A stretch of 19,685 nucleotides of DNA from a virus (IMGVR_UViG_2695420380_000016); one strand, 5' to 3'. Shown: positions 1,267-19,685, counted from the first letter of the stretch. A program made the numbers and translations. Notes: generated by a model not told the origin, from the letters alone.

Positions 1267-1542
1267 TGTGGTGCTTTTTGTGGGAGTCATCCACTTACGC
1301 ACTTTGTTTTGCTATGCCAGCAGTTAGCTTCTGCTGTAAAACTATTCATGCAGCAAACCTGCACTTCACCACAATGGTTAGCATACTTTTCCTGATTAAG
1401 TTATTGCCAAATATGCTGGCCATTGTTTCATGTATTGGACCTCCTTACTATTTATTAAAGAGATCCAATATTCACCACTCTGTCTGTATCTCCACTCAGG
1501 CATCAGCCTTCTTCGTTATCGTATACAGACAAACTATGAATT

Positions 1543-1758
1543 TTAATCAGTAATGATGACATTTGCTGCTGCTGGACCTTTAGCACCACTCTCTACAGAG
1601 AAGGTAACCTTTTGTCCTTCAAATAAGGTTCGATAATTATCATTCTGAATCGCAGAAAAATGCACAAACACATCTTTACTACCATCAACAGGAGAAATAA
1701 AGCCAAAACCTTTATCAGCGTTAAACCATTTTACTAAACCAGTCATTTTATTTGACAT
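1543..1758 (-). CDS. cspB: cold shock protein CspB (CspA family)
   Basis: 71-aa product [71 protein letters not shown] carries the cold-shock-domain RNP motifs KGFGFI and VFVHF. Closest to remembered E. coli CspB. SD AAGGA lies upstream. Confidence 0.9.
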
Positions 1759-1960
1759 TCTACATTCCTTAACTTGAGCCTTTCGGCATAAATGGCTTGT
1801 ATAACAGAAACGACTTCGTACTTAATTGGAGAGACTCAAAGAAGGAATAAGTGAATAACACCTGAAATGAGAACTGCTTTAGTAAACTACTTCGTATATC
1901 GTCTGTTCTTCAAACCGACGCAATCATTAACGCATAGTTGAACATATGAAGCAATGTTTA
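1759..1960 (-). promoter_or_regulatory. cspB promoter and long 5' UTR region (inferred)
   Basis: About 300 bp AT-rich divergent intergenic region between cspB and cspF. CspA-family genes are known to have long regulatory 5' UTRs. Exact promoter elements not mapped here. Confidence 0.35.
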
Positions 1961-2693: not shown

Positions 2694-3446
2694 TTATCTC
2701 GTCACCTTTCTCAATTGTGCTTCAGCGTAAGATTCCTCCTGCCAGCACTTTGTAACCAGTTTATCAATGACATTTGCATATCCTTTATACCACTGATAAT
2801 CACTCAGGTCTGGTACCAGCTTCTGGACATGATGCCGCGCCAGTGTGGTTGGTAAACGACTAAACCGTTTTCCATTGCAACGCCCACAAATCTTATAAAC
2901 AGGTGTGCCATGAAGCCGGGTCCTTTTTTCATCCAGGACAATACCTTTACCCTTACACCCTCTGCACGCTGTGCTGACTTCTCCCTTACCATGGCAATGC
3001 TGACATAGTTCCTTCACCCACTCTTCTTTGATAACAGATTCCCCGCTTCTGGAGTGTTTCACCACTTCGAGCAATACATTATGAAATCCAGTACCAGCAC
3101 AATGCTCACAACGAGCCTTACTTGCCGCAGACCTGGAATAATCAGCAAAGGCAAAATTCACAAGGTAAGGAATAATCTGTAGCCGGGTTTCTTCACTCAA
3201 TTTATTCAATGTCGGGTTATCCAGTGCCATCGCGTAATTGAGCAGACCTTCAATCGCAAACTGAGGATCCTGAACACCAACTTTTGCCAGGAATAAGGCA
3301 AACCCAAGCGGTGCTTTCGACTGCACCATCCCCTGCGCAGCCATCACATCCGTAATCGTTAAACCACCAGAGCCTGTCGCCGGTGCGTCATCACTCAATT
3401 TTGGAGATTTTGGGGAGTAATATTTTGGTAAGGCTTCAAGGTTCAT
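2694..3446 (-). CDS. late-gene antitermination protein Q (phage 82 / QuuQ type)
   Basis: 250 aa with Cys/His clusters (CEHCAGTG, CQHCHGKGEVSTACRGCKGKG, CGRCNGKR). Sits between the DUF968 gene and the promoter-terminator module. Size matches remembered Qin QuuQ. SD GGAG upstream. Confidence 0.75.
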   Translation of the reverse strand: MNLEALPKYYSPKSPKLSDDAPATGSGGLTITDVMAAQGMVQSKAPLGFALFLAKVGVQDPQFAIEGLLNYAMALDNPTLNKLSEETRLQIIPYLVNFAFADYSRSAASKARCEHCAGTGFHNVLLEVVKHSRSGESVIKEEWVKELCQHCHGKGEVSTACRGCKGKGIVLDEKRTRLHGTPVYKICGRCNGKRFSRLPTTLARHHVQKLVPDLSDYQWYKGYANVIDKLVTKCWQEESYAEAQLRKVTR

Positions 3447-8425: not shown

Positions 8426-9036
8426 GCGTTAGTTTCTCCACAACCAGAAGCAATCGACGCCACGACGCCCGGAGCTGCACACTCGCGGGCGTCATTACTT
8501 TCTGAAACGCAAAAAATTTTGTAGACAAGTGCTGCATGCTCCTGCAGCTTCGAAATTGAGAGGTACAGCTCGTCGTTAATTGCTGTCTTCTCATGCGGTT
8601 CCACTACACCGTCTTCGATTGCCGAACGAATCTGTTTTGAATAACTGCCGATCTGTTCAATGACTTCCAGTAAACGCTGGTTAATATCGGCATTGTCCAC
8701 ATCCTCGACGTCAGGAAGAGACACAAAGACGCCATTTGCAGACTGCGCCACAGCGTCAGCAATGAAGTGAGTGCCACCAGCACGTTGTAAAATCATTGCC
8801 CATCCCAGCGGGAAAATCTGATCGCCATCGGCACGAAGGCGGTTAAATAATGCGTTCTCTGTTACATCCAGCCAGTCAGCTGCTTCAGCGTAACCACCCG
8901 GCAACGCTGCGATAGTTTTTCTGACAGCTTTCACGTACCACTCAGGCTGTTTTTCTACTTTCCAGTGATACTTACCCACGGTTAGCCTCATCGTTCTGTG
9001 GTTTCTGTTAATCGATTTATCCATTAGATTTTTCAT
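8422..9036 (-). CDS. CII-like / CP76-type phage regulatory protein (start uncertain)
   Basis: Positioned immediately after the cro-like gene. Length and position fit lambdoid CII-like/CP76 regulators. Track ORF extends to 9093, overlapping cro by 76 nt; internal Met codons at 9036 and 9024 are more plausible starts. None has a clear SD. Confidence 0.5.
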
Positions 9037-9217
9037 AAAGCTCAGGTTTAAATGGCAACCGTCCGCAAGTTCTATATGCTGCTTCTGCTGCACGTCCTTT
9101 TGGAATTAACTGGCCCGGACGGTTTCGCCACTGATAAACGGCCTCAGTTGTTATGCCGAAAAAAGCAGCAACTTTCTCAATACTGCCGAAGTAGCTTTCG
9201 ATATCGTCAGTTGTCAT
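9017..9217 (-). CDS. Cro-like repressor, DicC type
   Basis: 66 aa: ...[56 protein letters not shown] resembles remembered DicC (YFGS..KLAQAAGI....Y.W......P.GRA). Divergent from the repressor gene. SD GGAGGG upstream. Confidence 0.7.
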   Translation of the reverse strand: MTTDDIESYFGSIEKVAAFFGITTEAVYQWRNRPGQLIPKGRAAEAAYRTCGRLPFKPELYEKSNG

Positions 9218-9315: not shown

Positions 9316-9942
9316 ATGGAAACGGTTGGTCAGCGTATAAAAGCTCTGAGAAGGGTTACCAGAACGTCCCAGAAAGAATTGGGTAAATTTTGTGGGGTAA
9401 GTGACGTTGCTGTGGGGTACTGGGAAAAAGACATCAATGTCCCTGGCGGGGAAGCACTTTCGAAATTAGCGAAGTTCTTTAATACGTCAATAGATTACAT
9501 TCTTTATGGTGCTGAGTTTGAAGGCAAACTAGTCACAAACATGCGCAGAGTTCCTGTAATTTCGTGGGTTCAGGCTGGGCAGTTTACTGAGTGCAGGGCA
9601 GCAGAAGTGTTTAGTGAAGTGGACAAGTGGGTAGATACATCTTTAAAGATTGGTGATAACTCATTTGCATTAGAAGTTAAAGGCGACTCCATGACTAATC
9701 CTAATGGCCTCCCAACAATACCAGAAGGTGCAACAGTGATTGTAGATCCTGATGCAGAACCTCGTCATGGAAAAATAGTCATTGCTCGACTTGATGGAAC
9801 GAACGAAGCTACAGTAAAAAAATTAGTCATCGATGGTCCTCAAAAGTTTTTAGTGCCATTAAATCCACGGTATCCCAACATCCCAATCAATGGTAATTGC
9901 CTGATCATTGGTGTAGTCAAAGGAGTTCAATACGAACTCTAG
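9316..9942 (+). CDS. CI-type prophage repressor (HTH_XRE N-terminus, S24 LexA-like peptidase C-terminus)
   Basis: 208 aa. N-terminal HTH (QKELGKFCGVSDVAVGYWEKD). Ala-Gly autocleavage site (VQAGQF). Catalytic Ser in GDSM and Lys in TVKKLV, as in lambda CI and LexA. Confidence 0.9.
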   Translation: METVGQRIKALRRVTRTSQKELGKFCGVSDVAVGYWEKDINVPGGEALSKLAKFFNTSIDYILYGAEFEGKLVTNMRRVPVISWVQAGQFTECRAAEVFSEVDKWVDTSLKIGDNSFALEVKGDSMTNPNGLPTIPEGATVIVDPDAEPRHGKIVIARLDGTNEATVKKLVIDGPQKFLVPLNPRYPNIPINGNCLIIGVVKGVQYEL

Positions 9943-9964
9943 TACCTCCCTTCTCTAACCAAGG

Positions 9965-9997
9965 CACCAAACTAAGAAAAGTTTGGTGTTTCCTCTT
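9965..9997 (+). terminator. hairpin downstream of cI (candidate terminator; also carries the operator-like motif)
   Basis: CACCAAAC-taagaaaa-GTTTGGTG followed by TTTCCTCTT. The 8-bp stem contains AAACTAAG. Confidence 0.4.
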
Positions 9998-10105
9998 GCC
10001 TTAAAAACTAAGTTAAGTTAGATTTAATATCAAAGATAACGAACAGGCAGGACGCCCACAAAGTAGCCTCCTGGGGCAAATGAAGTCCAGGATGATTCGT
10101 TAGCA

Positions 10106-10131
10106 ACAAAAAAGCGCCCTATAGGACGCTT
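10106..10131 (-). terminator. intrinsic terminator for the minus-strand 173-aa gene
   Basis: Minus strand reads GCGTCCTATAGGGCGC followed by TTTTTTGTTGC: 6-bp stem with one G-U pair and a U6 tract, about 42 nt after the stop at 10173. Confidence 0.55.
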
Positions 10132-10172
10132 CGATCTTTAACAATCTGGGTATCATCCAACCAATGCAAGAT

Positions 10173-10694
10173 TTAAGGAATCCAAGGCGAATTCAGATCT
10201 CGCCCCGACTCACGTAATGATCTTGGTCGTTCGTACATCGGATTTTTTTCCATAAGAAATTTATTTTCACAGTGAAGGCAACGGCTTGTAAGAAAATGAG
10301 AAGTTTTACCTACTGGAAGCGGATGAAGTATCGATTTTATATTTTTGGAATAACAAAGTGGGCACAGATGCACAGTTATTTCTTTTCCACTCACAATTTC
10401 ATTTTTAGAGTAAACAAAAGCACCAGAGTCAAGCTGATCAAGGACATATCCTTCTACCTTGGCACAAAAATCTTCAAACTCTGCAATTTTTGCTTTGAGA
10501 TGCATCACCTCTTCATCACGAAGGCGGATCGCATCGCCAAGAGAGAAGCATTCTGCCTGAAGCGTGATTAGTTTGTTCTGGAGTTCAATGGTTGCAGCTT
10601 TAACTTCTGCATCCGTTTTCGCGTCATTAATAACCTTAGCAAGACCGGCAGTCTCCTTTATAGCAGCCATAGCCGCAGACAGTTCAGCTATCAC
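10173..10694 (-). CDS. hypothetical coiled-coil / zinc-ribbon protein (moron between cI and the early operon)
   Basis: 173-aa ORF on the strand opposite to both neighbours. Markedly AT-rich compared with flanks (by eye). N-terminal heptad-like helix (ATIELQNKLITLQAECFSLGDAIRLRDEEVMHLKAKIAEFEDF). C-terminal CPLC...CLHC. Own terminator. Start is GTG at 10694 with no clear SD; ATG 10673 is an alternative. Confidence 0.55.
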   Translation of the reverse strand: MIAELSAAMAAIKETAGLAKVINDAKTDAEVKAATIELQNKLITLQAECFSLGDAIRLRDEEVMHLKAKIAEFEDFCAKVEGYVLDQLDSGAFVYSKNEIVSGKEITVHLCPLCYSKNIKSILHPLPVGKTSHFLTSRCLHCENKFLMEKNPMYERPRSLRESGRDLNSPWIP

Positions 10695-10981
10695 GTTGAA
10701 TACTCAGCTAGTTGTTGGGGGTATCCAGATTAACCAAATCCTTGTTGTTGGGGAATAACCAGGTCCACCTCGCCTGATGTGGCTAAAAGCAGGCACATAA
10801 CAGCTAAGTATTTTCAACCAGAGAGAATCCTTAGCGTTGTGGTGAATGCGGCTCAGCGCACGCGGGTTAAGGTTGAGGCTGACAGTCGACCTTCTGTGGA
10901 TACCCACCCGTCTGGTGTACAACCTTCGCCAGGCACCGGGAGGCACCCGGCACCACAACTTTATGCTGTGTGTAGTCTTGG

Positions 10982-11033
10982 CGGTACCAGCTTGTACCCT
11001 TGCTTCCGGCTGGTACCGTACTTTTTACAAAAC
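10982..11033 (+). terminator. strong stem-loop plus T-run in the early-operon leader (terminator and/or 3' end of a small RNA)
   Basis: CGGTACCAGC (10982-10991) pairs perfectly with GCTGGTACCG (11009-11018) around a 17-nt loop, followed by TACTTTTTAC. Confidence 0.4.
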
Positions 11034-11163
11034 AGAGAAGAGCATCATCGGACGACGGGCTCATAACCCAATCCATCCGGGCGGCTGCCACCGCAGGTGT
11101 TCTTCTCTGTTTTGTGGAGAAACCAACCGACCTTGCAGGGTCGATATGATGAGGAGCAGCAAA

Positions 11164-11526
11164 ATGGCTAGCGAACGCAGTACTGATGTGCAGGCATTTA
11201 TCGGGGAGCTGGACGGCGGCGTATTTGAAACCAAAATCGGCGCTGTTCTCAGTGAAGTCGCTTCCGGTGTGATGAACACGAAAACCAAAGGTAAGGTCTC
11301 GCTCAACCTGGAAATCGAACCGTTTGATGAGAACCGTGTGAAAATCAAACACAAACTCTCATATGTTCGCCCGACTAACCGCGGGAAAATTTCCGAAGAA
11401 GACACCACCGAAACGCCGATGTATGTCAATCGCGGTGGTCGCCTGACTATTCTGCAGGAAGACCAGGGACAATTACTGACTCTTGCCGGTGAACCTGACG
11501 GAAAACTCCGCGCAGCAGGTCGTTAA
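11164..11526 (+). CDS. YfdP-like hypothetical protein (120 aa)
   Basis: Internal ATG at 11164 is preceded by GAGGAG at ideal spacing. The upstream in-frame extension of the track ORF (from 10846) has no RBS and lies in stop-poor GC-rich sequence. The 120/274/178/120-aa size series matches remembered CPS-53 YfdP/Q/R/S. Confidence 0.6.
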   Translation: MASERSTDVQAFIGELDGGVFETKIGAVLSEVASGVMNTKTKGKVSLNLEIEPFDENRVKIKHKLSYVRPTNRGKISEEDTTETPMYVNRGGRLTILQEDQGQLLTLAGEPDGKLRAAGR

Positions 11527-14451: not shown

Positions 14452-17400
14452 TCACACGCTGCGCCTTCGAGAATATTCATTTAATCGCTGATAACGAACA
14501 TCTTGCTCCAGTTGTGGAGCAGCTTGAACAATTTGAAGCAAGCATTGCCCCAACTCTCGAGGCCCCCAGTGTTGTTCGGCAATCACGGCATTCAGCAGGG
14601 ATAGAGCGTCCGCAGGATATCGGCTGCAAATATCTGATTCTAGCAAAAGGCGAACGTCGTAGCTAAGGTGTTCGAGCGGTTGCAGCCAGTCCTGCACCAC
14701 TGCCAAAGCCGCCGGAAATTCACCTCGGGCAGCAATCACCATACGAGTCAACGATTCGGATATGCGTGGGGTGGCCAAGTTGCGGGACTTTGGCCAAACC
14801 TGTTGCCAAAATGGCTGGACACGATTTTTCCAATACTCCTCGCGCTGATCGCCCGCACCTTCAAGTGCCTGGTATAACGCCTGCGCGGCTACCTCCAGAC
14901 CTTCTTGTGGAAGAGCACTAATTGCCGTTCGGAACTCCTCCACGGTATATCCCTCGGTAGGGCCCAGAGCTGCATAAGTCAGGAAAGTAGCGAATTGCTG
15001 CCGGTGCTCGCCAAGATCAGAATAGTGATTGGCGCTCTCCAAAAAATCTGACTTGAAAGCTATCAGCAACGGTTCATACAGGCGTGGCGACCAGAGGAAG
15101 CCTTCCCACACAGCTTTTGCTTCGACGGGATTACTCCAAGCAAACAAGGGCAATAGATACTGTTCGGTCCAAGGTCGATCTACGCGAAAAAATGCGATCA
15201 GCCGCGACCCCAGCAACACCCGACCATGGCGGAATAGCTCTATCTGTACATTACACAATTTGGTGAAAAGTGTTTTCAATTCAACAGGAAGCAAATCATT
15301 GTCATTCGGGTTCTGTTTGAACCATAGGGTGATCAGTGATTGCGTGACATGCCCAATGGGATGATTGATCGCCGTAGAAACAGGATCATAGGTCTCAATT
15401 CCGTTTCGAATGGTGCTAGACTCTGGGCTTGTTTCTATCATCAGAACCCGACGACAAAGGGCCAGTAGAATCTCCTCGTGGCAGAGGATGGTCTTCGAAG
15501 CCTCCTCCATCCACCAAGTGACAGCGTGGGAAATCTCCTGAAGTACTGCGTCAGGCATGTCAAGCACCAACGGTGCGGCGTACCGCCACGAACGCAAAAT
15601 CATCCCTGGTTCAGCCCAAGTCTGCAGAGCTTCACGCCACCGACCAACAGGCCACACATCATCTTGTGATAGTTTACTTAACGCATACAGACTGTGAAAA
15701 AAGCGCGTACGGCAAACATCACTCCAAGTGTCCTCATAGAAAGGCAGTCTTTCTGGCATAGGCTTTGCGAGCCATTGCACTAATTCCTGCCACTTACGGG
15801 GCGCAATGTCGACATCTATACTCTCCTCGAAGCCTGGATCACCGGTTCCGCTCATCCAGTGAGAGAATTCATCACGCTCGTTGGTTGCCAGTTGCCATTT
15901 TGGGTATGCTGTGGATATTTCCGTCAAACGTGTAGCCGCAGACTCTCCCAAAACAAGGCCCGCTCCCCTGAGCTTCGCTAGACACAACCAGACGGAATGA
16001 GCCACCAAATAATGCCACCTGTCTGCTTCCAAATTATCCTCGTACATCTCGCGCGGAGGCCCTGCCAAGATAGCAGTTTCCAGACGCTCTTGTGCAATTC
16101 CTGTCAGATGTCGTCCCTGCAAAACAAACAGTCTGAATACCTCTCGCCTAGTATCCGTGGCCCACAACCACCATGAACCGTCCTCTAACAACCAATTAAC
16201 CCACCGCTCAGGTGGTATGCAGTTGTCTTGGCTTGCGGCAAACAGTGCCAGACGTTTGAAGGTGGGATATGGCAACTCAAACCAATTCTGAGCAATGCGC
16301 GTGGCCTGATCGCTGTCTTTGGATCGAACGGCTAACCATGAATCCCGAAGTAATTCAATCAGGCTCACCCAATCGCGGAACCCCCGGTTCTGCCAGTGCG
16401 GAGTGATGGACGGCAAATCCCAATGCGAGCGGTCGTGACGATCGTCGGACTCTCCCAACTCCCGCAACAAGTCCAGTGCATCACGCAACAACTGCTGAAA
16501 ATCTTCCAACAGGTATGGCAAGGACGATTTCCATGACTCGTCAGCAAGGTCGAACAGGGTTGAACGTACGTAATCAGCAGTCAGCACCAGCTCCCAATCC
16601 ACCAATTGCTTGATTCGCAAGGGTTCATCAGTGCTGCTCGAATCGTCTTCACTATAGCGAAACGGCCGCCTCAACATAACCTTGGGAGAAAGCAACTCGC
16701 GTAACTCCAAGCGCAATGTAGTCGTCAAGCCTTCATTCTTTAAGCGGTTTTGCCAACGATACAAATCCAGGTTCTGCAATGGCGATTTCACACGACCACT
16801 AAGCAGAAGCCGCCATAAAGTAGACATAGGTGGACCAGGAATAGCCAGGGGGGAATGCAAGAGAATTTCATCTAACTCAGAAGTCTTACGCTCCCGCATC
16901 AGTGCTGCTAAGCGATCTAGTTCGCTCTCAATCAGAAACATCCAACGGTCGTGTATTTGTCCGCCGCGTTCAGCAATCCATATGATCAACCTAGGGTCGC
17001 CCAGATAACGAACTAGCCAACGGGCTATATGGGACATTACGTCATCCCATTTGCTAGCACTGACACATCCAGAAACCAGCGACATCTGCGGGGCCAGCTC
17101 ATAGGGCGCAGGACGCTGAACCAGACTGAATCGGAGTTTCGGGTCAATTTCGACATGCGGAGATACACAAAAGCGTGGCAGATCGCTGTATTTAAATCGT
17201 TCGTCCGAGAAAGCTTTCAATAACCAATCCAGCGGCGGTGCAGGATTGAGTTCCGCAAAGCGTTTTGCTGGTAAACCTGATTTATCTGACAAGGCCCACA
17301 ACATCCGACCAACGAAATCGTCCTGACGAGTGCTGTCCTGCGGGCGGGCCAGAGCATGTTTGACGACTATAGCCTCTTTGCCCTGTATACCATCTCGATA

Positions 17401-18279
17401 AGTATCTGCCCAAGCGTGCAACGTTTGATGCAGCACTGAATGATCAGTGGAGCCCGCCGGTACGGTGTAAAGGATAGGAGTGACCCCTTTGGCCTCCCAC
17501 TCGATGGCTTTCCGGTGCTCCTGCCCCGGCTCACACTCCCCCAGTGCCCATACTTGTGGTGTGACTTCACCGAGCCTCCGATCTGCTGCAAGCGCATCCA
17601 TCATGTAGCGCAGTACCGGGTCGTTGATGCTGTAGCCAACGAAGCAGACCACATAGTTACGAAATAACTCACTCACAAAGCGAGCTGCCCAACGCTCAGT
17701 GAGATAAGCCAAGCCAAAGTCACCGCTGGTAACAACCAGACGATTCAGGGCAGTATCATCCGCCTTTTCCGGTAACAGCCCATGCAGGTATACAAGTCCA
17801 TCCCAGCGGCTGTTTTTTGGAATTGGCAGCATCGGCGCTACATAGGCCTGAAAAGCCTGGCCTGTACGTTTAGCTGCCACATGAAAGAGACGGTCAAAGT
17901 TGGTAGTGACCAATCGAAGGGCACCCTCGCGGCTACGGGCTAAACGTAACAGCGCCGCCTGAGTATCAATAGCGCCCCTACGACGGAGCTTTGGCTTAAG
18001 GGCTTTTTCCAACGCGCGTCGGACGGCTATACGCTGCCCTGGTAAGCGCCGTTCCAGCAAATCTAATGTGCCGTCAAATTGCCCACGCTCGAAAACCTCA
18101 CGCTCAATTTCTGAAAGTGTTGTTCCGTTCCTCTGGTAAATTAGTTCTACCAACCCTTTGAAACCAGGTAAACCAGCAGGGTAGGAAATGCCTGCTCCAC
18201 AGAAGAACACAACGCGCCCTTCCTCGTGCGCCTGCAAAAGCTCATCAGGAATATCAGGGCCGTTGGTAATGAATTGCAT
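14452..18279 (-). CDS. SIR2-like domain fused to a large helical C-terminal domain (1275 aa); candidate DSR-like antiphage NADase
   Basis: N-terminus carries SIR2_2-type motifs in order: VVFFCGAGISYPAGLPGFKGL (glycine-rich NAD loop), VTTNFDRLFH (catalytic Asn), VYLHGLL (catalytic His about 40 residues later), FVGYSINDPVL. The remaining 950 or so residues are helical and Trp/Leu-rich with no Walker A motif. Strong RBS GGAGGAAAAGGA before the ATG at 18279. Candidate -10 TATAAT on the minus strand at 18342-18347. Confidence 0.8.
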   Translation of the reverse strand: MQFITNGPDIPDELLQAHEEGRVVFFCGAGISYPAGLPGFKGLVELIYQRNGTTLSEIEREVFERGQFDGTLDLLERRLPGQRIAVRRALEKALKPKLRRRGAIDTQAALLRLARSREGALRLVTTNFDRLFHVAAKRTGQAFQAYVAPMLPIPKNSRWDGLVYLHGLLPEKADDTALNRLVVTSGDFGLAYLTERWAARFVSELFRNYVVCFVGYSINDPVLRYMMDALAADRRLGEVTPQVWALGECEPGQEHRKAIEWEAKGVTPILYTVPAGSTDHSVLHQTLHAWADTYRDGIQGKEAIVVKHALARPQDSTRQDDFVGRMLWALSDKSGLPAKRFAELNPAPPLDWLLKAFSDERFKYSDLPRFCVSPHVEIDPKLRFSLVQRPAPYELAPQMSLVSGCVSASKWDDVMSHIARWLVRYLGDPRLIIWIAERGGQIHDRWMFLIESELDRLAALMRERKTSELDEILLHSPLAIPGPPMSTLWRLLLSGRVKSPLQNLDLYRWQNRLKNEGLTTTLRLELRELLSPKVMLRRPFRYSEDDSSSTDEPLRIKQLVDWELVLTADYVRSTLFDLADESWKSSLPYLLEDFQQLLRDALDLLRELGESDDRHDRSHWDLPSITPHWQNRGFRDWVSLIELLRDSWLAVRSKDSDQATRIAQNWFELPYPTFKRLALFAASQDNCIPPERWVNWLLEDGSWWLWATDTRREVFRLFVLQGRHLTGIAQERLETAILAGPPREMYEDNLEADRWHYLVAHSVWLCLAKLRGAGLVLGESAATRLTEISTAYPKWQLATNERDEFSHWMSGTGDPGFEESIDVDIAPRKWQELVQWLAKPMPERLPFYEDTWSDVCRTRFFHSLYALSKLSQDDVWPVGRWREALQTWAEPGMILRSWRYAAPLVLDMPDAVLQEISHAVTWWMEEASKTILCHEEILLALCRRVLMIETSPESSTIRNGIETYDPVSTAINHPIGHVTQSLITLWFKQNPNDNDLLPVELKTLFTKLCNVQIELFRHGRVLLGSRLIAFFRVDRPWTEQYLLPLFAWSNPVEAKAVWEGFLWSPRLYEPLLIAFKSDFLESANHYSDLGEHRQQFATFLTYAALGPTEGYTVEEFRTAISALPQEGLEVAAQALYQALEGAGDQREEYWKNRVQPFWQQVWPKSRNLATPRISESLTRMVIAARGEFPAALAVVQDWLQPLEHLSYDVRLLLESDICSRYPADALSLLNAVIAEQHWGPRELGQCLLQIVQAAPQLEQDVRYQRLNEYSRRRSV

Positions 18280-18461: not shown

Positions 18462-19685
18462 TCATTTCGAGCCTGAACGAGTACAAGTAACAATCGATTC
18501 AACTCTCTCCCACCATGCCTGGTAGGCTTTACGCTGTTCTTCTAGATAATCACTCTTGTCATAAACTTGCCATACACCTGGCAGTTTATGACCGAGCATT
18601 ATTTCAGCAATATGAGGCGCAGTAAGATCAGAAAAGTTTGTTCGTGCTGTTCGTCTCAAATCATGAAGAGACCAATGAGGAAATTGATACCCCAAACGCC
18701 GCCATGCGTACTGCATTAAATTGTAAGGCAGCGACTGCAATGATGTCCGACCAACTGGTTCCCTGCTTCCTTCCTTAGTAAAAAGCATATCGGAACCGTT
18801 GTTCATAGAGATAACGTATTTTATAAGCTCTTCAACCGGTTCAATAATGGGCCGCTTTAGCGGTTCGCCTGTTATATCCCCTGTCTTATGTCGTTCTGGT
18901 GGTACAGTCCATATTTTATTAATGAAATCAAAATCGTCCACCTTGGCAGTAATTAGCTCTGAACTACGGCAACCAAAATGCAGCAATAGTTTAATGAAGG
19001 CCCGGTATTTAGGAACCATTCGAGAACCATCGATCGCAGCATAAAGGATTTTAATTTCATCATGTGTCAGAAACCGTTTCTTCTGACCTTTACGGATATC
19101 CATATCTTTACCCGTGATATCCGACAGCGGGCGAGTTTCAATGAGCTTTCTCTTATACGCCCAGACATGGGCCTGCTTTGCGTTAATTAGCAATCGGTCT
19201 GCTATTGCTGGAGTCTTAGTGCTAAGAGGCTCCAGGACTTCTAACCAATCATGCAATGTAGCTGCATCGTGAGGGATATTCCCGATTTTAGAGAACAGGT
19301 GCAGCTCAAACGAGCGGAGTATCTGTTCAGAACCTTTTTTATTTTTTACACAATATGCTTCATACCAAGCACGGATCACAGATTCTACCGTCATGGCTTC
19401 AGTAGCTTTACGTTTTTCTGCCAGCTTGACCAATCGTGGATTGCGGTTTGACTCGAGTTCACCACGAAGACGGATAACTTCTTCTCTGGCCTCTTTTAGT
19501 CCAGTTGCCGGGTAAGTTCCGATATCAAGACGCTCACCTTTCCCCGCCCACTGATAACGATATTGGAACACTACGCGACCTTTCGGTGATACTCTAACAG
19601 ACAGACCATCACGATCGGATTTAACCAAAACCTTATCACGTTCCTTTCCAACAACTGAACGCAACCACGCATCAGACAGCGCCAT
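18462..19685 (-). CDS. tyrosine integrase, P4-like (DUF4102 arm-binding N-terminus plus catalytic domain)
   Basis: 407 aa. N-terminus MALSDAWLRSVVGKERDKVLVKSDRDGLSVRVSPKGRVVFQYRYQWAGKGERLDIGTYP fits the P4-family arm-binding pattern. C-terminus has catalytic-domain motifs (HDLRRTARTN..., GHKLPGVWQVYD with the Tyr). The ATG is the last three bases of the window, so upstream signals and att are outside. Confidence 0.85.
   Translation of the reverse strand: MALSDAWLRSVVGKERDKVLVKSDRDGLSVRVSPKGRVVFQYRYQWAGKGERLDIGTYPATGLKEAREEVIRLRGELESNRNPRLVKLAEKRKATEAMTVESVIRAWYEAYCVKNKKGSEQILRSFELHLFSKIGNIPHDAATLHDWLEVLEPLSTKTPAIADRLLINAKQAHVWAYKRKLIETRPLSDITGKDMDIRKGQKKRFLTHDEIKILYAAIDGSRMVPKYRAFIKLLLHFGCRSSELITAKVDDFDFINKIWTVPPERHKTGDITGEPLKRPIIEPVEELIKYVISMNNGSDMLFTKEGSREPVGRTSLQSLPYNLMQYAWRRLGYQFPHWSLHDLRRTARTNFSDLTAPHIAEIMLGHKLPGVWQVYDKSDYLEEQRKAYQAWWERVESIVTCTRSGSK

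Follow-up and report, generated by a model that had tools for sequence, protein, structure and literature searches.

Canonical STnc100, EcOnc27 and PasD (PasD1 and PasD2) are prophage small RNAs that bind Hfq by experiment; they are abundant and have targets. Directly 5' of canonical STnc100 copies stands a conserved promoter-like sequence (of the -35 TTGACA / -10 TTAAAA type), and their terminators are strong. The put antiterminator RNA of HK022 acts through the zinc-binding domain in the beta' subunit of RNA polymerase. DicF of the Qin prophage has no internal promoter, and no longer read-through species of it has been detected. In the e14 prophage, ymfH belongs to a single co-regulated, induction-dependent group that also contains intE, xisE and the lytic genes of e14; apart from this grouping with induction genes, nothing relevant was found in the literature on ymfH. 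Complexes of boxA and Nus factors of the rrn type mainly counter Rho, not intrinsic terminators. The gamma-proteobacterial boxA consensus is GYTCTTTAANA (PMC5725501).

The DNA analysed here (the window) is a stretch of 19,685 nucleotides from the virus IMGVR_UViG_2695420380_000016, a lambdoid prophage of the SfV/SfIV/e14/ST64B-like type. Genes for cro, Q, a cII-like and an O-like protein occupy its minus strand (Table 1). The plus strand carries a cI-like repressor gene, yfdP and, 3' of yfdP, yfdQ, yfdR, DUF551 genes and an excisionase-like gene, a set that therefore constitutes the early-left operon. Between the repressor gene and yfdP lies a moron on the opposite strand, encoding a 173-aa product for which no Pfam or PADLOC match above threshold was found. 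Beyond the excisionase-like gene, at the place where relatives have a co-directional int, the window holds two genes on the minus strand, a full-length Dsr1 (SIR2) gene for defence (14452-18279) and a gene for a P4-type integrase (18462-19685); the segment 14452-19685 represents a defence island or else an integration module that has been replaced. An Rfam scan of the window at the gathering threshold returned the cspA thermoregulator alone (RF01766, 161 bits, 1476-1919, minus strand), which belongs to a cold-shock-protein moron in the late region. Pairs of C4 antisense RNA and isrK are present in the pR operons of SfV, ST64B and mEp460, near genes of the Rha/antirepressor type (records L004 226-414, L003 409-597 and L007 824-1012); the window has no such pair.

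Table 1. Features of the repressor-yfdP region and reference genes in the window.
Feature	Position	Strand	Basis or remark
Q antiterminator gene	2694-3446	minus	
cro	9017-9217	minus	
cI-like repressor gene	9316-9942	plus	Pfam S24 and HTH
Likely terminator of the cI-like gene, hairpin CACCAAACU/AGUUUGGUG with U-rich tail	9965-9995	plus	Read from sequence
Candidate pL: -35 TTGCCT, 17-bp spacer, -10 TAGATT	9996-10030	plus	Operator-like site between the hexamers
X, conserved structured RNA of ~65 nt (10037-10103), 5' end of the pL transcript	10031-10111	plus	Covariance model
Intrinsic terminator hairpin of the 173-aa gene	10111-10132	minus	Terminator scan and sequence; on the plus strand directly precedes boxA
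boxA-like GATCTTTAACA	10133-10143	plus	10/11 positions of GYTCTTTAANA, C2 to A
173-aa gene, moron, antisense to the pL transcript	10173-10694	minus	ORF list
10-mer GTTGTTGGGG, twice, 33 bp apart	10711-10720 and 10744-10753		Sequence; upstream region of the 173-aa gene
S1 hairpin GCUAAG-U-AUUUUC / GAGAAU-C-CUUAGC, 13 bp	10803-10835	plus	Fold and flank comparison
STnc100-like core, 124 nt	10836-10959	plus	Rfam RF02076, sub-threshold, full length
P1 closing helix of the core, GUUGUGGUG/CACCACAAC	10836-10844 with 10951-10959	plus	Junction AAU next
P2 hairpin of the core	10848-10863	plus	Variable middle next
P5 hairpin of the core, CCGGG-AGGCA-CCCGG	10936-10950	plus	
U-rich single-stranded spacer UUUAUGCUGUGUGUAGUCUUGG	10960-10981	plus	Aligns with the 5' part of DicF
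Intrinsic terminator, perfect 10-bp stem, 17-nt loop, U5	10982-11027	plus	Fold and covariation
S2 long hairpin	11022-11122	plus	Fold and RNAalifold
H6 hairpin CGACC-UUGCAG-GGUCG	11128-11143	plus	Just 5' of Shine-Dalgarno GAGGAG (11151-11156)
yfdP	11164-11526	plus	ATG at 11164

The gap between the start of the 173-aa gene and the yfdP ATG (10695-11163) measures 469 bp, matching the roughly 470 bp given in an earlier description of the locus (the sequence-only reading), which had taken it for a GC-rich, structured leader with a terminator ahead of the first early gene. The claim of GC richness has to be toned down, the content being 52.5% against 48.3% for the window, with a peak of 0.59. The claim of structure stands: the minimum free energy of 10806-11163 is -146.7 kcal/mol compared with -116.6 +/- 4.9 for shuffled controls (z -6.2; 0/100 shuffles as good), and the CCGGG hairpin pointed out there is the P5 element of Table 1. 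Several frames are stop-poor and non-coding, as had been stated, but the overlapping mechanical ORFs of at least 40 aa number seven instead of five; none contains a Pfam domain, and the K-12 protein YmfH likewise has none. The direct repeats are also present, but they are only marginally unexpected because about 0.1 such 10-mer repeats would be expected by chance in 470 bp (our own estimate), and they fall outside the conserved RNA module. Homology to SfV and e14 starts only at ~10765, leaving the first ~70 bp of the interval outside the module; this part, repeats included, is upstream sequence of the divergent 173-aa gene. Separately from the module, 10696-10802 is conserved at 83-89% identity, in O157:H7 and other strains, and may be the promoter or operator region of the moron.

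From 10765 to 11163 the window holds a non-coding, structured and conserved RNA cassette. Conservation among related prophages, on which the sequence-only reading had made its proposal depend, is extensive, with the module matched in 3096 of 5426 complete E. coli genomes (57%) and in 74 phage records. The idea of a simple leader is not supported. Most of the interval is a cassette of the small-RNA type related to STnc100/PasD and DicF.

The resemblance to STnc100 is centred on the 124-nt core. A permissive scan with RF02076 (STnc100) aligned the complete model (1-206 of 206) with 10806-11028, spanning core and terminator, at 38.5 bits (E 7.8e-7), which does not reach the gathering score of 47 bits; sub-threshold matches of 29-39.5 bits were also obtained in SfV, ST64B, P1 and e14. 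In alignment, the window presents the scaffold common to STnc100, EcOnc27 and PasD: a closing helix ending in GGUG and running into AAU (GGUGAAU junction), then a hairpin on the 5' side and the hairpin CACCGGGAGGCACCCGGCACCA on the 3' side, with a variable middle between them. From IMG/VR, a sample dominated by near-identical E. coli prophages, a pattern scan yielded 41 distinct cores that share the closing helix, the AAU junction, the 5' hairpin and a 3' hairpin abutting the closing helix, around a hypervariable middle of 30-70 nt. P1 is 97.4% paired, and 5 of its 9 pairs are compensatory between subfamilies (this branch, canonical STnc100, P1 phage and one further variant were compared), although the independent covariation events are few because the patterns used for gathering the core sets fix both P1 strands within each subfamily. 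A terminator follows the core in 59/61 type-A, 14/17 type-B and 20/20 canonical distinct contexts, at an offset of 62 nt in the window. No second copy of the core was found on the pR side of the window. A tRNA-like reading of the core, built on a possible type-B loop-loop pairing (GCUGAU/AUCAGC), was set aside, no covariation being available for it.

The conserved module begins ~40 nt 5' of S1, at a mosaic boundary, and S1 itself is a shortened counterpart of the long "S" stems found ahead of the core in other phages. The outer S-stem pairs CACAAC/GUUGUG are found in the window (10797-10844) and in the S stems of records L017, L038, L044 and others; the S stem and the core closing helix are mutually exclusive because GUUGUG, the 5' strand of P1, is common to both. 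The 3' strands of S stems contain GUGCUCUUUCC, similar to the boxA core GCUCUUU; as a boxA candidate this was rejected, having the first 7 of 11 consensus positions only and being buried in a duplex. In other phages, tandem units of S stem and core directly adjoin tRNA gene arrays (records L045 4777-5242, L017 12863-13315, L089 4566-4809 and L026 798-951), and in the ban operon of phage P1 (L006 2272-3130) a unit lies between tRNA genes and tciA with no terminator.

The U-rich spacer 3' of the core is kept beside otherwise different cores and is a candidate Hfq-binding or seed region. The terminator that follows it is real, its stem kept by compensatory changes, and it is located before the first early-left gene. 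The perfect 10-bp stem and T-run had been picked out correctly from the sequence; the strands are 10982-10991 and 11009-11018, with T5 at 11022-11026. Covariation across homologous prophages, suggested there as a check, upholds the core closing helix, the terminator and the long hairpin S2 by compensatory changes. For the terminator, RNAalifold gives 11 pairs, 5 with changes on both sides, and the ST64B stem is entirely different in sequence yet pairs, being fully compensatory there and in other phages. A consensus terminator scan, which allows loops of up to 8 nt only, missed the hairpin solely because its loop is 17 nt. This loop and the presence of only five U's are atypical, on account of which the terminator could be weak. 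By eye, alternative antiterminator pairing of its 5' arm amounted to a weak 4-5 bp that is not kept in ST64B. Two further candidates were set aside: an ops/RfaH site (GGCGGTAC...), judged by eye and not kept in ST64B, and self-targeting of the immunity type (as in C4 and P4 CI), for which complementarity to the rest of the window was no better than in shuffled controls.

The spacer and terminator of the window align with DicF (UUGGCGGUAyCAGyUU...CCGCCCUUUUU). The DicF model (RF00039; gathering score 48 bits) gives a weak match in the e14 homologue (28.5 bits, E 0.02) and none in the window at E up to 10. In K-12, the Qin prophage has an unannotated STnc100-type core between dicF and dicB (NC_000913 1649382-1649589; record L260 1083-1290). 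Since a core lies beside dicF in Qin and the spacer-terminator aligns with DicF, DicF and the STnc100-like cores seem to be neighbouring cassettes of one modular system. In a crude test of complementarity to the ftsZ translation start, the duplex z was ~0 for the window and e14 and -1.6 for DicF itself. Comparison of sequence and pairing relates the cassette to both STnc100 and DicF and defines the architecture described here.

Two more structures separate the terminator from yfdP. The stem of S2 has 25 bp (11022-11046 with 11097-11121), its 5' strand starts with the U-run of the terminator, and its apex is a conserved GGG-CUCAUAA-CCC hairpin; several of the 25 pairs are compensatory, for example G:C to A:U in ST64B. 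S2 is a candidate RNase III site. The H6 stem is wholly replaced in sequence in other phages with pairing kept (GGCGG/CCGCC, GCCCC/GGGGC). RNAalifold on ten diverged versions of the region 3' of the core recovered the terminator, S2, the S2 apical hairpin and H6, with 46 pairs, 11 of them showing compensatory changes.

An adjacent promoter, as a simple leader would have, is not supported. No sigma-70-like site was detected in 9900-11300 at the scan threshold, and hence none within the interval, although a weak promoter near 10780-10812 is conceivable; the operator-bearing pL candidate is ~0.8-1 kb upstream, directly 3' of the cI terminator. The start of the interval is ~660 nt downstream of it. 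With agreement at 8 of 12 consensus positions the candidate falls short of the scan threshold; its operator-like 11-mer AAAACTAAGTT (10004-10014) recurs in the cI-cro intergenic region, and operator-like sites are also found just 3' of cI in ST64B, SfV and mEp460. On these grounds 9996-10030 is likely the early-left promoter pL.

Immediately 3' of pL is the conserved RNA that we call X, made up of a closing helix (10038-10043/10096-10101), a hairpin GGC-AGGAC-GCC (10046-10056), a second hairpin (10070-10074/10087-10091) and an invariant GAUGA. The X model (R2) scores 90.3 bits on the window (E 1e-28), finds exactly one copy per phage, none of them on the pR side, and finds none in HK022, HK639, phiEt88 and mEp460. 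Pairing is observed in 96.4% of cells and 11 of 14 pairs change on both sides; 0/500 shuffles reach these values, slid controls are at most 44.5% paired, and RNAalifold agrees. X has no Rfam match and is present, without annotation, in 1839 of 5426 E. coli genomes (34%). At least six unrelated immunity promoter/operator sequences abut X in relatives, with the junction ~10-20 nt after the -10 hexamer. The element is also present in mEp237 and in phages of Yersinia, Pantoea, Pectobacterium, Klebsiella and Salmonella; it always stands first in the early-left operon, the genes behind it differ, and no N is annotated. Of the 111 loci whose upstream sequence is long enough, 90 have X on the strand of the core and 343-1032 nt 5' of it. 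In certain phages, mEp460 among them, the core occurs but X does not. A crude scan detected no obvious intrinsic terminator within 1.5 kb in 4 of 10 X-bearing phages. Within X, a GGA in the hairpin loop AGGAC (10049-10053) and CAGGAUGA (10088-10095) are ~40 nt apart and both conserved, an arrangement that recalls a two-site CsrA binding element.

A perfect boxA, GCTCTTTAACA, is present in 42 of 43 copies of the site among all sequences compared, the window being the sole variant. In 41 loci a perfect boxA separates X from the core, 39 of these having it at a constant distance of 88 nt from X, and it is kept whichever minus-strand moron comes next; phages without the moron module are without boxA. 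The window also departs from other invariant or nearly invariant positions, namely in the pL -35 hexamer (TTGCCA to TTGCCT) and in X (G10060A, G10069T and T10079A), in addition to C10134A in boxA; 13 records match the X of the window at 99% identity or more. These substitutions may reflect decay of pL-operon control in this prophage copy. The earlier statement that no Arg-rich N-like ORF is present is borne out on the operon strand, where no ORF with an Arg-rich motif was found between pL and xis, and none of the window ORFs scanned had an N-like Pfam match. The sequence-only reading had also concluded that a terminator in the leader implies regulated read-through. The RNA-based mechanism that it considered is still plausible, but X and boxA, which by their position are the elements best placed for antitermination, lie outside the interval to which it looked.

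We propose, with a probability of about 0.55, that the locus is a DicF-type small-RNA cassette in the repressor-controlled pL operon of an SfV/e14/ST64B-type prophage, and that its terminator gates the early-left operon. Transcription would start at pL (~10031), outside the interval, making X and boxA first, then passing antisense through the 173-aa moron, and then producing S1, the STnc100-like core and the DicF-like spacer and terminator. The polymerase from pL would thus have to make ~1.1 kb of RNA that is not translated, half of which is antisense to the moron, before meeting an intrinsic terminator. An unmodified polymerase would stop there in vivo, freeing a structured, presumably Hfq-type small RNA with a 3' hairpin and U-tail, possibly subject to DicF-like processing, and leaving yfdP...xis silent. 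A polymerase made termination-resistant at X and/or by boxA-Nus factors would go on past the terminator. In the read-through transcript S2 would pair with the U-run and probably be cut by RNase III, leaving H6, the Shine-Dalgarno sequence and yfdP, from which yfdP would be translated. Since cI is co-directional with the operon, such a gate would also shield the early-left genes from transcription that arrives from the cI side or the moron. Several observations count against the proposal: the sub-threshold Rfam score, the promoters of canonical STnc100 genes, the large terminator loop with only five U's, the lack of an X copy at pR, the X-bearing phages in which the crude scan saw no terminator, the phages with a core but no X, and the substitutions in the boxA and X of the window.

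Four other readings have to be weighed against a gated small-RNA cassette. The interval could be an independent small-RNA gene with its own promoter at ~10780-10812, expressed in the lysogen, with the yfdP operon transcribed by leak or from elsewhere and the link to pL incidental. The promoters of canonical STnc100 copies, the start of the module ~40 nt 5' of S1 at a mosaic boundary and the mapping of the Rfam model start to 10806 speak for this, but no sigma-70-like site was found, other family members carry a long S stem at this place without promoter-like sequence, DicF, the analogue studied by experiment, lacks an internal promoter, and e14 ymfH groups with induction-dependent genes, so that we consider it rather unlikely. 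The region might instead be a processing and stability leader only, in which RNase III/E sites and 5' protection serve the yfdP mRNA, the terminator is weak and the excised RNA is functionless. Such a role would suit the long, perfect S2 stem that absorbs the U-run, the terminator with its large loop and only five U's, and the cores of P1 and Qin that directly adjoin the ribosome-binding site of the next gene; it is rendered improbable by the nearly universal linkage of core and terminator, by conservation of the U-rich spacer and by the related RNAs, which are abundant Hfq ligands with targets.

Very little can be said for the STnc100-like core as a cis-acting, put-like antiterminator that lets the polymerase ignore the terminator just downstream. 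It is true that the core always stands upstream of the terminator in operon leaders, that these phages are without N and that a variable middle is framed by a highly conserved scaffold. However, canonical members are stand-alone genes, each with a promoter of its own and a strong terminator, in some cases opposite a convergent one; the family accumulates as discrete Hfq-bound small RNAs, the opposite of what self-antitermination would yield; in P1 and the tRNA arrays no terminator follows the core; and the put model has no match. Lastly, annotation of the module varies, from a "YmfH" protein in K-12 e14 and a frameshifted pseudogene (PGAP) in EC93 to none in SfV and ST64B, and 71 distinct close relatives show indels of 1, 7, 8, 20 and 25 nt, several 1-nt indels separating the window from e14 and ST64B within otherwise invariant sequence. 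A protein-coding, YmfH-like gene of ~100 aa, intact or frameshifted, is scarcely credible despite the K-12 and EC93 annotations and the stop-poor frames, and was rejected, since the YmfH frame is not conserved and is broken by indels common among relatives, conservation tracks helices and not codons, there is no Pfam domain, and SfV and ST64B leave the region unannotated.

The K-12 "ymfH" and many calls of "hypothetical" or "frameshifted" genes, in over half of the complete E. coli genomes, are best explained as structured RNA and not as protein, and the present Rfam threshold for STnc100 misses this branch of cores. STnc100/PasD and DicF apparently form one modular set of RNA cassettes, met with repeatedly in operon leaders (early, late and plasmid-prophage) and sometimes beside tRNA arrays. 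How common N-less lambdoid prophages pass their early-left terminators becomes testable now in a defined setting of one terminator, one pL, and X and boxA as candidate cis elements, all present in the e14 of K-12.

The closest studied analogue is dicBF, on which the mechanism proposed for the window is modelled. In both, a small RNA lies inside a repressor-controlled early operon and has its 3' end at its own terminator; the order of modules is reversed, with DicF preceding the core in Qin and the core preceding the DicF-like module in the window. With STnc100, EcOnc27 and PasD the window shares, besides the scaffold, a spacer and intrinsic terminator after the core and a prophage location. 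The sequences of P1 and P2 differ, and the window core stands within an early-left operon leader behind an S hairpin, whereas members of the STnc100 family stand alone in the late region.

The elements near pL invite comparison with three antitermination systems. Compared with lambda N/nut, the window has no N protein and no recognisable boxB. As for boxA-Nus systems (rrn leaders, lambda nut, CRISPR arrays and suhB), 42 of the 43 copies of the site have a perfect boxA on the operon strand, with a hairpin before it and a long untranslated stretch after it; the copy in the window, with C2 to A, is the exception. X resembles the putL/putR RNAs of HK022 in lying just 3' of pL, in its size of ~65-70 nt with two hairpins, in belonging to N-less lambdoid phages and in being placed ahead of terminators; the interval itself, ~660 nt 3' of pL, is not put-like. 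X and put are mutually exclusive in the phages examined, share only short motifs (CGAAC and CAGGAUGA), and differ in distribution, put having copies at both pL and pR and X at pL only. A loose put-derived pattern matched two unrelated places in the window and is therefore not specific. Homology to put was rejected by a put covariance model (R1), which was built from 6 putL and 3 putR sequences and scores 96 and 74 bits on HK022; with E up to 10 allowed, neither 10031-10111 nor 10765-11163 gave a match. We regard X as an undescribed conserved structured RNA at the position that putL has in HK022, and not as a put homologue. Tentatively, and with the odds against it, X might be a new class of cis-acting antitermination RNA that replaces N/nut and put. 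If so, it would serve a large lambdoid group comprising SfV, SfII, ST64B, e14, mEp237, SPN3UB and phages of Yersinia, Pantoea, Pectobacterium and Klebsiella, and would mark only the polymerase initiated at pL, perhaps together with boxA and Nus factors, enabling it to read through the STnc100/DicF-like terminator, which would otherwise release a small RNA and shield the early-left genes from transcription of cI and the moron.
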